DNA from: Hormiphora californensis
Lineage: Eukaryota; Animalia; Ctenophora
Direction: 5' to 3'
NCBI GenBank assembly: GCA_020137815.1
Contig: CM035361.1
Location: 248,001 to 312,000 of the forward strand
DNA length: 64,000 nt
Shown here: positions 20,329 through 54,000 of the stretch, piece by piece
Layout of the letters: each line of letters opens with the position of its first letter
Position numbering within the stretch: position 1 is the stretch's first letter
The notes under the pieces: generated by a model
The model's database searches: none
The model's input: the letters and a program-made list of their open reading frames with translations, nothing else
Told to the model about the DNA's origin: nothing
Program-made: the position numbers and the translations under genes

Positions 20329-21681
20329 TTACAGTAGTTTCAGATGCCGTGTAATCAGATCAATATCACTAACATGTCCCGGACCCAGTGCCAGTACAGT
20401 CTTACTACCAGGTTCTATCTGTGTCCTACCAGCATCTCGGACAATATAGGACAAGATCCCGTGTTCTGCTGCTGCTCGACCCAGTGAAACTAATTCCTCC
20501 TCCGTACCTGCTTTGACAACAACCTGGGAAGTTAGTTGTGGGACGTTATAATTAGGTGGTCTGCAGTCAGAAACTCATTTACTGGGCATCTTCCGCTAAA
20601 TCGGGGATCGGCAGAATCCAATTAAATACTTGTATTCAAAGTGAGTGGATCATGTCGATATTGGGACTAGTAGTCCCGGACTACTGAGATACTACGTTCG
20701 GCGGCAGGGTGGTGACTGGTGAATGGTGACTCAGGGGGAGAGGGGCAAATAATTAATAAATAATTACCTTTGCCTGTCCTTCATACCGCCATGTTTTTAA
20801 TAGGTCAGGTTGTCTTTTAGCGGCCACCTCCACTGCACCACACGCTGCGTGAGCACACTGGGCTGCAACTTTACCTGGGAAGTAACACTTTTTAGTGGTA
20901 TATGTTCAAAGTTCAAACATGACGCTGAGTTTGACATACAAAGTATTAGCAATTTCTTCGATTCCTCATTAAAGTCAGATTTTTTGAAGTTGTTACCCCA
21001 AAATGACCGTGCATGTGAAATTTATCAATTTTGACGCGCACACCACACGTTAACATGTGATGTGACGCGCAAAAACATTCCGCGCACGAGAAGGGGGGGG
21101 GGGTGACAACTTCAAAAAATCCGACTTTAATCTATTTTCAGTCTACACGGTCCACGGTGGAAGAAAATGCTAGAACCGAACTGCAAACTTATCATACTCA
21201 GTACATTATATTTTGACCAACCTTTTCCCATTTTCAAGTCCATACGGACTACAAGAAGCATCTTGAGATCATCACCAATATAATCATTGTCATCGATCGT
21301 TAAGTTCTCCTTACCCCTTTGCTTCCGTTTAATGCGAGCCTGTAAAGGGAGAATTTTATTTTAGATTTTACATAAATAAACCGATGGTGAGGGAATAATT
21401 AAAAATATTGTCATTTATATATAACTGACAATACTTTAAATTCGATTATCGAAAGTGAGACGAACAGGGACTGACTGTTCTGATTCCGCGATCACTGTGC
21501 GAGGGAGTCTGAACAACTTGTCCAGAGTCTCTCGCGTGGGGAAAATAGCGTTGTGAAAGGTGATTTACAGAACAAGACAAGAGCTGACTGTCTAAAGCAC
21601 CTGAATTCTAGGTATAAAGTATCCCAGTAGAACGCCGGTTATTGTACACAGAACCGCCCCAGATACAGTTGTTGCATTCAT
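20329..21681 (-). CDS. PTRH2: Peptidyl-tRNA hydrolase 2, 4 exons: 21681-21601, 21339-21222, 20874-20768, 20523-20329 (166 aa)
   Basis: Spliced translation has an N-terminal hydrophobic anchor, then [24 protein letters not shown]...WRYEGQAKVVVK...VRDAGRTQIEPGSKTVLALGPG...IDLITRHLKLL*, the canonical PTH2 motifs. GT-AG introns, phases 0/1/0. Confidence 0.93.
20969..21130. mobile_element. TTAA-bounded MITE in PTRH2 intron 2
   Basis: About 30-bp TIRs ttaaagtcagattttttgaagttgttaccc / gggtgacaacttcaaaaaatccgactttaa. Confidence 0.75.
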
Positions 21682-22310
21682 CCTAAAGTGTTGTATGGTT
21701 TAAAGCAGATTTCTCGACCTTGTTTCAAAACTTGCGGTTTGGCTCTTGAACAAGGTTTGAATTTTGATCTAGAATTATGTAACTGTTTGCCTCTGAGTGT
21801 GGCTTAAGGATCGAGATAAAGTTTTGCATTAGCGAGTGTGATCTGTCAGCTCGGAAACAGTCAAAAGCTACAGGGTGGTCATGAATTTTGAGAACTTGAT
21901 GAACTTGCAGGTACGGCGCTGGGCCTTCGGACTTCGGTACAGCAAGTCCCTGGGTGTCCGGGGCCAGGGGCGGCAGCCTCGGTCAGGGGACGTGGGCGTA
22001 AGGGGCAGAGCCCCCGCAGGCAGGGTCAAGGGGCTGCAAGCCCCGGTTGGGATTTTTTAACGATTTTAAGCATTTCTGATTTCCTTTTGTGAAAAATGGG
22101 AAAAAAGATGAAAGTTTTCTGATCACGAGAAAAAAAATCCTCTGCTCGCACACACTTTTTTTTGGGTGAACCGGACACCCTGGTCATATCAAATTGCACT
22201 GTGGCGCACGTAAGAACCTTCTTTATGCTCTGCCGTGTAGTGCGTAACAGGTGCACGCAGAGCTCCGGACACCCGCAAATCCAAAATTTCGCAGTTTTCA
22301 TCGATTTTTT

Positions 22311-25300
22311 TTGGAAAAGAGGTTTAAAATTATACTGATAACAATCAAATTATATATAAGCACACTGTGGTAATAAATTAAACATACAATAAATTAATAT
22401 CTATACTACTTGAATAGTATGGTGTAATTGTCTTTCCTCGGTAACCCCGGAGGCTGACGATGAGAGTTTTGAGGAGACAGAAAGATAATCTCTGCCGGAT
22501 GTAGCGTACCGCATCAGGGATGGATTGTTTGGTTTTCCCGGAAAGGAGAACTGCCAGTCTGCGGTAGAACCTTTCTGCTTCACGTCCCATAGTTCCGGTG
22601 GTGGAGAACACGATGGGTGTGAAGGAGGCTTTCTCTACTTCCAGGATTCGTTCATTGTACACCCTCTTTTTCTCTTTCTCGTGAGAGGCCAAAGCAGATT
22701 TCAATGACTTTTTGATGTTAGAGTCTGCACGTGAGTTGAAAACTCTGATGTCAAGGAAAGTTTTGTCCATGTCGACCCATACCTTCCTAGCAGACACGTC
22801 AAGCCTGGCTTGATCTTCGGTGTTGGCACTCTTGTATTTGAATTTTTCTCCAGTGATGGGAAGGAGATGTGGTTCAATAGTAACATCTGTGCATCCAGCC
22901 TCGGAGAGAAGATTCGCAGTCAGATCCCGTATCTGATTGTGGCGGAGGTGAACATAGCCACCAAGAGGACATGACAGACAGTGTTCCATACTGTTAGGCT
23001 TTCCACACATGCAGGTATGGGATATACCTTCAATGGGGAAATCATACCGTAAGGACATTGCGTCGTGGAATTCCCCTTTGTTGAGAAGGAAGCCATGTTC
23101 AGCGAGAGGGAGGGTTGTTACCCAGGTGGAGGCTCCGCGTTGGCACAGCTCCTCATGGAGACGTTGTTGTCGGGGGTCTAGCTCAGCTGATGCAGTTTCA
23201 AGGTCGCATTTTTGTTTCGCTCTCTTTGCCGTTAGAACCTTGTGTTTGGCAACACTGAGATCCACTGTGGCTCTGTCCGCTCTCTCTGAGGTAATATGAG
23301 TGTTCTGTTCGTTTATGAGTTCAGAAAGAGGGGCAGTAGCTTCAACAGATCTAGCATACTCATCGTCCGCGATTTTGGTGGGATCAGATATGCCAATACC
23401 TCCATTCCTAGCAGGGAGACTGAAAATGTTTCTGTGGGTATCGCTGAAGTGGGGAGTTATAGTTTTGGGGAGGAAGAGAGTCGTGATGGTATGTTCCAGA
23501 GGGAGAAAGAGGTGCGATATGTTGGGTGTAGTACGCATCAAGAACAGCCACTTTTTCGATAGTCCTACACAGAATGCTGAGAATGACGCTTGCGGTTCCG
23601 TTTCAGAGGCAGATGAAAGTTCCTCTAGCTGACGGCACCAGCCGCTCACTTGGTCTGAAACAAACTGATCCCTGAAACTATCAGAGCCAAGAGGGGCGCC
23701 TAGATACCTTGTTCCTTCTGTCAGGATTTGAATGTTTGTGTTGCTAAACAAGGACTTGGCCGAAGCGAGGAAGCGAGGTTTCACTAGGAGAATGGACTTT
23801 TTAGCATTAGGGAAGTAGCCCAAGCCTGGACCCGCAAGACACAGTGTGTCCCACCATTGTTTCACAGCAGCAAGTTTTCCAGCAGCCGCACCATCATCTG
23901 CATAGAATATAGTCTTAGCATTAGATAGCGATAGTGAGTTGATCAGTGGTCGTACACTTATAGAGTAAAACGGAGAGGCGATGTTGCATCCTTGGGTAGT
24001 TCCCTCTGAGCTAAGGATAATTTGGCCATTGGATAAGTAAAGGTTGGTGGGGGAGCGGTAGAAATTAGTAGCAAAGGTTGAAAGGTTGGGACAGAGAAAT
24101 CGCAAGTTAACGAGGGCTGTCTGCCTGTTGATCACATTGAATGCGTTTGATGCATCAGCGAGGAGAACGCCTTCCGTACCATCGTCGTGGAACATGGCAT
24201 TCATGGAGTGTACCGCAGCCTCAATTCCTCCCTGTTGACCAGCTGCTAACTGGAGTGGGCCTGCTGCATCGAGAATATCAGGTCTGAGATGGCAGGACAC
24301 TGTTCGGCCAATAATTCGGCGCAGGATTTCACCGACACCGATTGGTCTCACGCCTGGGTTCTTATCGAGGGCAATGAGTCGGCATGCAAGAAGAGGGGAA
24401 ATGGTGGAAGGATCAACATGTACAGTACATAACCGTCTGGTCATGAGGGCGAGGGCGTGAGCTAAAGCATCAGCTTCCTTGGAAAAAGATTTGCTGCAGA
24501 TCATTCTAGCCCACAGTTTCTCAGTGGTCCCGCTCGGCCCAGCCCCTCCTTTAGTGGTCCCTGCCGCATCCCTAATGGATTTGGCGCTGATGTCATAGAA
24601 CACTATAGGGTCAGGTTTGGGTGCAGGATCAGTGCTGTACAAATGTTCAAAGCTGATTCCCTTTCCTTCCGGATGTTTGGATTTCAACTCGTCGATAACC
24701 TTTTCCGTAATCTCGAGGGGTTTGGATGGTGTGGTGGACAGGATCCTCAAAGCTGCACCTACCCTTCCCTGAAACATGAGTCGGGCAAAGGTACGCTGTG
24801 GATTAGAGTTACTGGCAGGTCCTTTCGCAAGCCTAGACTGGATGATCTTACCCTCGGCAAGAAGTTCATTGAACTGCCCGCCCTTCCATAAATCTAGTCG
24901 GCGTTTCAGTATTTCACGATGTTCTCCCGGTTTAGTGTTCTTTCCTGGGTTCTGTAGTAGGAGCGGTCCCATGAGCATGAGAGCGTGGATCGAGATTCGC
25001 TCAAGGCGGGTTGGGATCGCCCAAGCGGTCACCAGCCGTGTGGCCTCTGCCACATAGGATCTTCCTACAGAGCCACCGGGTAAATTAAACAAATTAGGTC
25101 TCCACGTTGCTATTGTTTTAGACGCTAACTGAAAGGTGGAGATAAGATCTTCATCTCCCCAGTCACATTGCAGTGGCTGGGCCTTCCGGAAATCAGGAAT
25201 ACGACAACAGTTGTGGCAGAACCATTTGGCGTCAGATAATTGAAGATTAGAGAATTGTTGGTCAGATAGACTGGCACATGTTGGGTGGTACCAGGACTGA

Positions 25301-25547
25301 CAATTGTCACACAGAATTGATTGATAAGAGGGTGTAAATTGAACGAAACCTGTGGAACATGTAGGACAGTTTGTGACAGCATCTTTGGAGGAGGAGAGTT
25401 GGGGACAGGATGATGTTACTTCTGTGGACTTCGTCTCGTCGTGGCTGTGCCGTTCGTTTCTCTTCTTCTTGCCATTATCTGCAACGACCATTGAGGCAGC
25501 CACAAGGACCACCTCAAATTAATTTGTTTAAAGTAGTGTTGAAAAGT
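22311..25547 (-). mobile_element. Full-length CRE-clade non-LTR retrotransposon with SL-like 5' end and 10-bp TSD
   Basis: tcgatttttt occurs at 22301-22310 and 25548-25557 flanking the element. Single intact ORF, about 65-nt 3' UTR, no long poly(A). Confidence 0.85.
22378..25491 (-). CDS. PHD finger + reverse transcriptase + restriction-like endonuclease polyprotein (about 1037 aa from the first ATG)
   Basis: C4HC3 PHD (CPTC..CDNCQSWYHPTC..WFCHNC). RT motifs LDKNPGVRPIGVGEILRR, DASNAFN, EGTTQG, YADD, YLGAPLG. CCHC knuckle CMCG..HCLSC then RHN. RLE motif RLDV..FLDIRV..EKEKKRVY. These match the animal CRE-clade layout. Confidence 0.93.
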   Translation of the reverse strand: MVVADNGKKKRNERHSHDETKSTEVTSSCPQLSSSKDAVTNCPTCSTGFVQFTPSYQSILCDNCQSWYHPTCASLSDQQFSNLQLSDAKWFCHNCCRIPDFRKAQPLQCDWGDEDLISTFQLASKTIATWRPNLFNLPGGSVGRSYVAEATRLVTAWAIPTRLERISIHALMLMGPLLLQNPGKNTKPGEHREILKRRLDLWKGGQFNELLAEGKIIQSRLAKGPASNSNPQRTFARLMFQGRVGAALRILSTTPSKPLEITEKVIDELKSKHPEGKGISFEHLYSTDPAPKPDPIVFYDISAKSIRDAAGTTKGGAGPSGTTEKLWARMICSKSFSKEADALAHALALMTRRLCTVHVDPSTISPLLACRLIALDKNPGVRPIGVGEILRRIIGRTVSCHLRPDILDAAGPLQLAAGQQGGIEAAVHSMNAMFHDDGTEGVLLADASNAFNVINRQTALVNLRFLCPNLSTFATNFYRSPTNLYLSNGQIILSSEGTTQGCNIASPFYSISVRPLINSLSLSNAKTIFYADDGAAAGKLAAVKQWWDTLCLAGPGLGYFPNAKKSILLVKPRFLASAKSLFSNTNIQILTEGTRYLGAPLGSDSFRDQFVSDQVSGWCRQLEELSSASETEPQASFSAFCVGLSKKWLFLMRTTPNISHLFLPLEHTITTLFLPKTITPHFSDTHRNIFSLPARNGGIGISDPTKIADDEYARSVEATAPLSELINEQNTHITSERADRATVDLSVAKHKVLTAKRAKQKCDLETASAELDPRQQRLHEELCQRGASTWVTTLPLAEHGFLLNKGEFHDAMSLRYDFPIEGISHTCMCGKPNSMEHCLSCPLGGYVHLRHNQIRDLTANLLSEAGCTDVTIEPHLLPITGEKFKYKSANTEDQARLDVSARKVWVDMDKTFLDIRVFNSRADSNIKKSLKSALASHEKEKKRVYNERILEVEKASFTPIVFSTTGTMGREAERFYRRLAVLLSGKTKQSIPDAVRYIRQRLSFCLLKTLIVSLRGYRGKTITPYYSSSIDINLLYV

Positions 25548-25548
25548 T
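25513..25548 (-). other. Spliced-leader-like 36-mer AACTTTTCAACACTACTTTAAACAAATTAATTTGAG
   Basis: Matches, from memory, the 3' part of published ctenophore SL exons. Lies exactly between the TSD and a 21-nt 5' UTR. Needs a database check. Confidence 0.75.
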
Positions 25549-25870
25549 CGATTTTTTGAAATTCATTTTATTTTTCCTTCTTTTCTTTCTCCGTCTTTTT
25601 GGCCTGGGTGTCCGCGGACACCCGAACACCCACGAACGCCGTCCCTGGCGCATTCATTTACCCAGATTTTAACGCTGACCGATTTTAAAACGCTGGCCCA
25701 AAAAAGTTTGAACTTTAAAAATTTCCAGCGCGGCCCGGCCCCGAAATTTATTATCGCGCGCACAAATGTCCTTGCGCGCAACAACTTGCAACGTCAAATC
25801 ATTTTATCTGCGTTGACCGTAAATTTTCTTTTGACGGCCGCGCGCGAGTGGCGATAGTATTAGGGTGAGG

Positions 25871-27220: not shown

Positions 27221-54000
<26,780 letters not shown>

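Follow-up and report, generated by a model that had tools for sequence, protein, structure and literature searches.

How does a retrotransposon come to begin with the spliced leader (SL) of its host, and can it renew that leader each time it is copied? The question is raised by an element at 22301-25557 on the minus strand of a 64,000-nucleotide stretch from the ctenophore Hormiphora californensis (GenBank assembly GCA_020137815.1, contig CM035361.1, positions 248,001 to 312,000). This whole stretch is here called the window. The element is an intact retrotransposon that encodes a reverse transcriptase (RT) and a restriction-like endonuclease (RLE). It is not site-specific, and its 5'-complete copies are headed by part of the SL at a fixed junction. 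Such copies were very probably made from SL-trans-spliced RNA. A full cycle, in which trans-splicing at the relic's own terminal AG renews the leader in each round, is probable as well, with clearly less assurance.

Structure of the Element

On the minus strand the element consists of a target-site duplication (TSD), a 36-mer, a 5' untranslated region (UTR) of 21 nt, a stop-free open reading frame (ORF) of 1037 aa, a 3' UTR, eight A and the TSD again.

25548-25557, minus: 5' copy of the 10-nt TSD, AAAAAATCGA, read from the window sequence; present as a single copy at an empty paralogue
25513-25548, minus: relic SL, 36 nt, the 3' part of the 44-nt SL exon, with 0 mismatches
25492-25512, minus: 21-nt 5' UTR, starting GTGGTCC; the SL-RNA intron instead starts GTAAG
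22378-25491, minus: intact ORF, 1037 aa, with PHD finger, RT and RLE
25207-25368, minus: PHD finger, aa 42-95 (Pfam PF00628, E 1.5e-5)
23890-24357, minus: RT core, aa 379-534, with YADD at 530 (Pfam PF00078, E 3.8e-8)
22657-23013, minus: RLE motifs, namely a CxC-x7-H-x3-C knuckle (827), RHN (850), RLD (896) and KKRVY (941), conserved in 40 homologues
22305-22377, minus: AT-rich 3' UTR of about 65 nt and a run of 8 A, 6 of them common to the TSD
22301-22310, minus: 3' copy of the TSD, read from the window sequence

A given 10-mer is expected at a given place by chance with a probability of about 1e-6. The element has the TSD and poly(A) 3' end of the CRE clade (10-nt TSD, 8-A run), but six of the eight terminal A fall in the TSD, so that the true tail beyond it may be just 2 A. 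An earlier note on this stretch had described an intact element with these parts on the minus strand and a TSD at both ends, a description that needs only small corrections. The TSD and the 36-mer, which it had set apart, are both real but overlap: one A is common to the end of the 5' TSD and the start of the 36-mer.

The leader of H. californensis is 44 nt long, is carried by 56% of Iso-Seq reads and occurs 718 times in the genome (PMC8527503; here and below, statements on published work refer to the available text of each source). The 36-mer is identical to the last 36 nt of this printed leader and to those of an SL gene exon found in a metagenome contig (locus L027, below). The match also points to a Pleurobrachiidae-like ctenophore as the likely source of the window. 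The earlier note had taken it for the 3' part of a ctenophore SL, and both matches bear this out. A single match to the 24-nt SL core is present in the window and none in 100 shuffles, and no second SL relic was found in the window. Contigs that extend beyond 25548 carry on into the remaining 5' end of the SL, with loose ends at 25548 in 4 of 4 runs. A scan of 21800-25860 against Rfam gave nothing meaningful and no ribozyme match.

The 10 target nucleotides just 5' of the junction (GAATTTCAAA, 25555-25564, minus) match the printed start of the SL at 9 of 10 positions. This may be chance, or it may have helped to join the cDNA end.

The encoded protein has 1120 relatives among 7988 candidates, the best of them 51-57% identical; none of the three candidates from viral_contigs was confirmed. 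Across 40 homologues the C-terminal CCHC knuckle and the RHN, RLD, D.R and KKRVY motifs are conserved. By these motifs, we take the region to be an RLE of the PD-(D/E)XK-like type. The protein thus has the single ORF with RT followed by RLE that characterizes the R2 group, the RLE part being recognized by motif. A PDB profile search gave nothing at E<=0.01, a PDB sequence search gave PHD fingers only, all at E >= 0.0045, and the Atlas clusters matched were PHD+RT clusters only. The label CRE is tentative, by likeness to animal Cre elements; no named CRE reference is among the 120 homologues listed. Members of the CRE clade have one or two N-terminal zinc-finger-like motifs (PMC12278014), and the PHD finger (PF00628) found here at the N-terminus may correspond to them.

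Other Copies of the Family

Logan contigs were searched with a 141-nt query made of the element start and 18 nt of the SL. The runs were X3 and X5 (DNA, organism A), X8 (DNA, organism B) and X13 (RNA); X12, X14, X15 and X16, where the share was small or zero, were left out, and read depths were not taken as copy numbers. All five DNA contigs that reach the element's 5' end join the SL at one and the same GTGGTCC junction, in three runs and two organisms. In X3, three of five contigs reach it: a shared contig extends 8 nt into the SL, and two unrelated flanks branch off after 9 and 8 nt. In X5, which also samples organism A, one of three does so, keeping 15 nt of SL before a third flank. In X8 it is one of 13 (8 listed; the depth table leaves no room for another), with at least 18 nt of SL; the listed pieces from this run differ from the window by about 10-14%. 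The SL lengths kept are therefore 8, 9, 15 and at least 18 nt, and 36 in the window. Every junction falls exactly at the end of the exon and leaves out the SL intron.

No SL-free 5' end was found among the five junction contigs, and loose ends of element contigs are absent both from 25512 and from the UTR. The earlier note had asked whether full-length copies have variably shortened leaders, the same GTGGTCC junction and different flanks, as these 5'-complete copies do. It had also named full-length copies with a long, SL-free 5' UTR as what would speak against it, and none is seen among the five.

A subfamily in X3 and X5 skips 37 nt of N-terminal coding sequence (25383-25421, with one letter between, frame kept). 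It also reaches the SL-joined 5' end.

An SL 3' part that ends exactly with the exon and lacks the SL intron is what the cDNA of an SL-trans-spliced RNA should have. The observed copies could nevertheless be dead ends. Rare SL-free masters, with their own promoter, an outron and a YAG acceptor, would then make the RNA, and the SL-headed copies would be cDNAs of their trans-spliced transcripts. This would explain a fixed junction and a perfect SL without any need for a GAG acceptor, part of the depth at the X5 junction is unaccounted for, and the loci of long interspersed elements (LINEs) described below were ascertained by their SL. However, unspliced RNA would have to be the template for the masters themselves, and some SL-free masters should then turn up. 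There are none among the five junction contigs, no branch occurs at 25513-25519 in X3 or X8, and the sequence variants in these two runs all converge on SL-joined contigs. Such masters are therefore unlikely.

The True Leader Gene

Metagenome contigs were scanned with 27 nt of the SL, an exact core being required. This gave 43 stretches in 42 loci: 30 are mRNA-like, 11 are element-like, and one, L027, is an array of SL and 5S genes. The same scan of viral_contigs and genome_contigs gave 0 matches, and by tblastn none of the 42 loci encodes the protein family of the window element.

In L027 (263-1945) a 778-bp tandem unit combines a 5S rRNA gene (E 9e-24) with the 44-nt exon, a GTAAG donor that lies in a hairpin, and more hairpins (fold z -4.2). 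This is the true SL gene, coupled to 5S rRNA, with an Sm-like site (CCUUUUGG) of non-canonical appearance.

The intron (GTAAG) and the upstream sequence of L027 are unlike those of the window. Therefore the element does not lie within an SL gene, as had been proposed before from its flanks. The insertion into SL genes that marks CRE, SLACS, CZAR and NeSL is not seen here either, as the window copy lies in a repeat resembling MITEs (miniature inverted-repeat transposable elements) and three other copies lie in three unrelated flanks. Targeting of SL genes by the observed copies was rejected on account of these flanks and the fixed exon-end junction.

Leader-Headed Elements of Other Lineages

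In the 11 element-like loci an exact SL stands ahead of long ORFs like those of mobile elements, and 1-461 nt of non-SL sequence lie upstream. By Pfam, L011, L012, L019 and L042 encode an apurinic/apyrimidinic endonuclease (APE) and RT, L024 encodes APE, and L006 has a weak APE match; L026 and L039 were grouped as LINEs by ORF1 homology (31-85%). Thus 8 of the 11 are APE-type LINEs by Pfam match or homology. The other three, L020, L037 and L040, have no significant Pfam match and are putative elements. Ten of the 11 come from two assemblies in which the SL gene array is the sole other SL locus, and none of those 11 loci is a host-gene retrocopy. From their flanks and the array, we infer that both assemblies are DNA. 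The SL head is thus a general trait, found beyond the CRE-like element in several lineages of APE-type LINEs.

Two of these loci are of interest in themselves. L040 (473-1656) has an SL head, a single 318-aa ORF, a short 3' UTR and an (AAT)n tail, and may be a non-autonomous, ORF1-only retroelement. L024 (1-2289), which may be a read-through transcript or DNA carry-over, is a LINE with an SL head and 351 nt of genomic flank; the 6 further loci of its set are mRNAs.

In all 11 loci the junction is the exact exon end. It can be traced through L006, L012, L039 and L042, which are 66-88% alike over 1200 nt and keep the homologous junction TGAG/TGTTCC (slash at the junction). The SL match is exact over 28-43 nt, and over at least 38 nt in 9 of 11, although only 27 were required. 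Matches as long as these have a probability of about 8e-4 if relics drift by 10% and of 0.08 at 5%, figures for loci that are not independent. None of the 11 has a second SL relic; a second SL 12-mer is absent from 41 of the 42 SL loci, the exception being the SL gene array. Tandem decaying relics of the dinoflagellate type are thus seen neither in the SL loci nor in the window. Directly after the SL, 12 of 12 elements, the window's included, have a G or a T, versus 12 of 30 mRNAs; as the loci are related, this bias was not used as evidence.

The exactness of the junction bears on template switching, in which the RT would leave the element RNA, continue on SL RNA or on an mRNA that bears the leader, and produce chimeras like U6-L1. 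The partner would be easy to find, since RNAs with the SL are extremely plentiful, at 56% of Iso-Seq reads and by the SL bin depth in X13. Yet switching predicts junctions that vary on both sides and include pieces of SL intron or host mRNA, while the observed junction is invariant in the five contigs and the window and is the exon end in the 11 other loci. The invariant junction largely refutes template switching, which is extremely improbable.

The leader might also be inherited as DNA, acting as an internal promoter or standing beside one, with trans-splicing only once per lineage. In Ascaris the SL exon is itself a promoter element, and short internal promoters do exist, such as the 77-nt Pr77 of the Trypanosoma cruzi element L1Tc. 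Inheritance would need no weak acceptor, and it would agree with three loci in which a downstream TTT(C/T)AG goes unused. But an inherited head should drift, as in short interspersed elements, and shorten at its 5' end. Instead, lineages with 31-85% ORF1 identity match the current SL exactly over 28-43 nt, and in the window element's own family copies keep just 8-9 nt of SL. An inherited relic is therefore improbable.

A third possibility is a master copy inside an SL RNA gene, at the end of the exon, that is driven by the SL promoter and whose offspring carry the exon elsewhere. CRE1, CRE2, SLACS and CZAR do insert in SL RNA genes, the window element starts with GT as the SL intron does, and contigs built from 31-mers are blind beyond a 44-nt SL. 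On the other side, the flanks are unrelated to the L027 unit. No joint of the element's 3' end to the SL was found in the three DNA runs, and no common 3' flank among the matches listed, which counts weakly. Above all, APE-type LINEs share the SL head, mostly without GT (9 of 11 junctions lack a GT start), so one general route is simpler than a master in the SL gene. Such a master is distinctly improbable.

How the Leader Could Be Renewed

Since the relic equals the current SL in diverged lineages, it is presumably renewed. Since in addition no SL-free source was seen, the acceptor should be the relic's own terminal AG; we infer its re-use by elimination, as the best reading.

The renewal cycle would have four steps. 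First, a copy would be transcribed from upstream, by read-through or from a weak nearby start. Second, the spliceosome would put a fresh 44-nt SL on the terminal AG of the relic. Third, reverse transcription would be primed by the element protein where an A/T tract is nicked, as priming at a target nick is established for RLE elements. Fourth, the cDNA would integrate with a TSD and end somewhere inside the SL, which gives the shortened relics seen in the copies. Within the SL, AG occurs at nt 2-3 and 43-44 and nowhere else, and the earlier one is missing from 10 of the 11 loci and from the window. Because there are only two AGs and 5' shortening usually removes the first, the junction would stay put and no tandem relics would accumulate.

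Elements of both the RLE and the APE-type non-LTR clades may here go without any promoter, with read-through transcription supplying the RNA and the SL 3' end serving as an acceptor that travels with the element and gives back an exact, capped 5' end in every round. This further step is tentative and rather doubtful, as a promoter could overlap the ORF. The window copy lies between two host genes on the same strand, which could supply the read-through transcription.

Several observations weigh against renewal at the terminal AG. The relic ends in GAG with a pyrimidine share of 0.50, while CAG, with a share of 0.50-0.81, is found at nine of nine cis acceptors nearby that were read by eye. L020, L024 and L040 have TTTTAG or TTTCAG right after the SL, a stronger-looking acceptor that seems to go unused. 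Because the LINE loci were selected by an exact SL core, SL-free members could not appear among them. At the junction the X5 depth is 370, down from about 870-1240, so that unseen 5' forms may exist there, and contigs drop rare variants. The window's own 36-nt junction is not among the contigs examined, and X3 is possibly the window's source sample. The copy counts are counts among contigs. Finally, no contig of the RNA run X13 spans SL and element, and its 5'-most element contig stops at 25462 in adapter.

Pieces of a relative in X13, about 6-13% different from the window, cover the element at a depth of about 1-11 and none cover its flanks. This is weak evidence of transcription, the flanks being of low depth in organism B. 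Record 2 of that run (498 nt), in which the SL is followed by 18 nt with 5 mismatches, was considered as an RNA junction and rejected, because it continues into an unrelated mRNA.

Insertion Site and Neighbourhood

The element interrupts a MITE-like repeat with terminal inverted repeats (TIRs).

25558-25647, strand unassigned: left part of the host repeat, TIR at 25637-25647
21908-22300, strand unassigned: right part of the host repeat, TIR at 21908-21918

With the insertion removed, this host repeat is 493 bp long and has 11-nt imperfect TIRs at 25647-25637 and 21918-21908. It is deep in the organism A runs, and its left end at 25647 shows diverse loose ends (5 contigs each in X3 and X5). No 8-bp TSD was seen around it. 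Helitrons are known by 5' TC and 3' CTRR ends and lack terminal inverted repeats. The earlier note was right that both flanks belong to another repeat, as they are its two halves, but the 11-nt TIRs and the boundary at 25647 do not support its Helitron label. The host repeat is MITE-like, and nothing marks it as a Helitron.

Insertion-free joints of the host repeat run from 22298 to 25548 (X3), from 22307 to 25559 (X5), and from 22299 and from 22310 to 25571 (X8). The X3 joint has a single copy of the TSD and no SL. Empty copies thus lack the 36-mer, whose presence there would have made it part of the host repeat rather than of the element, the outcome named beforehand as fatal to the idea. 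By their sequence, a few letters off the window flanks, the insertion-free copies look like paralogues and not like an allelic empty site.

About 1 kb downstream of the element and on the same strand lies a PTH2 gene (20329-21339, minus); three of its exons were found, but not the one in which coding starts, so the element may sit in an intron or an outron of this gene. Upstream, also on the same strand, is a multi-exon gene read by eye that likely encodes a membrane protein (27240-31030, minus); an 11-mer at 31020-31030 equals the TIR of the host repeat. Farther away, a 265-aa ORF (38296-39093, plus) is 33-34% identical to the ORFs of L020 and L040. It has the look of a decayed ORF1-type element, and no SL relic was found upstream of it. 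An ISXO2-like transposase ORF (47288-48208; PF12762, E 1.5e-16) lies within 43699-49579, between inverted arms of 324 nt that are 97% complementary.

Significance

Non-LTR elements lose their 5' ends on copying and must keep a promoter. Two answers are known, internal promoters and co-transcription with a ribozyme, and trans-splicing would be a third. Renewal is directly testable in the family of the window element, whose copies are distinguishable by the 8, 9, 15 or 36 nt of leader that they keep.

Retrotransposon heads also offer an explanation for many of the 718 leader copies in the H. californensis genome, which the available text of PMC8527503 leaves unexplained. If the promoter-less cycle is true, most of these copies are such heads, and each insertion plants a trans-splice acceptor able to cut host pre-mRNAs. 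In ctenophore annotations, LINE heads likely inflate the number of SL genes and of shared "first exons". Conversely, the SL head can serve as an exact marker for full-length elements.

Relation to Known Systems

The earlier note had presented an SL-dependent, promoter-less strategy as seemingly undescribed in this group. This was overstated, given the SL-bearing elements of flatworms, the re-splicing at relic AGs in dinoflagellates and the presence of the trait in APE-type LINEs; an RLE element headed by the SL does appear to be unreported. The literature search, which left most subscription papers, Repbase and the Hormiphora supplement outside, found no report for ctenophores, of an SL-headed RLE element, or of a renewal cycle in an autonomous element.

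R2. This element frees its 5' end by a ribozyme like that of hepatitis delta virus. It is an RLE element without its own promoter, which is co-transcribed with host rRNA and processed at its 5' end (PMC3636483). R2 is site-specific in rDNA and has its ribozyme, whereas in the window element the SL sets the 5' end and Rfam gave no ribozyme match.

CRE and NeSL elements. These elements target SL genes (PMC3636483, PMC12278014, PMC4640811). Trypanosomatid CRE1, CRE2, SLACS and CZAR and nematode NeSL share with the window element a single ORF with RT and RLE and an association with the SL; CRE also shares the poly(A) end and the TSD. They insert, however, at a fixed site in SL RNA genes, while the window family sits in unrelated flanks, bears the SL at its own 5' end and encodes a PHD finger at the N-terminus.

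Hydra. In this animal the SL is found on about 30% of the Iso-Seq reads from transposable elements, including full-length CR1 (PMC12220107). The likeness is at the RNA level only, as SL at the ends of genomic elements is not described in the available text of that paper. Trans-spliced transcripts have also been linked to a CR1 repeat in another report (PMC6362198).

Dinoflagellates. Retrogenes here carry a relic whose AG is re-spliced with the next SL (Slamovits and Keeling 2008, as described in PMC3229502). The integration of cDNA from SL-bearing RNA and splicing at a relic AG are the same as proposed for the ctenophore, but the sequences recycled are host genes, and use of an internal AG leads to tandem, decaying relics. 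The ctenophore shows no tandem relic, neither at the 11 loci nor in the window; splicing at the terminal AG would leave no such trace.

Flatworms. Six SL exons merged to transposable elements are reported from Schistosoma mansoni (PMC5832876). In a survey of 24 flatworm species, 597 loci with partial leaders beside LINE or long terminal repeat (LTR) elements were discarded, with the suggestion that they are integrated trans-spliced transcripts (PMC12582326). Flatworm retrotransposons thus have the same kind of partial leader at genomic LINE and LTR loci. In the available text these loci are mentioned in passing, discarded or treated as possible mis-assemblies, without junction analysis, family census or a cycle. 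The ctenophore differs from them in having an intact RLE element with a TSD, a junction that is invariant across copies and two organisms, and the same head on several LINE lineages.

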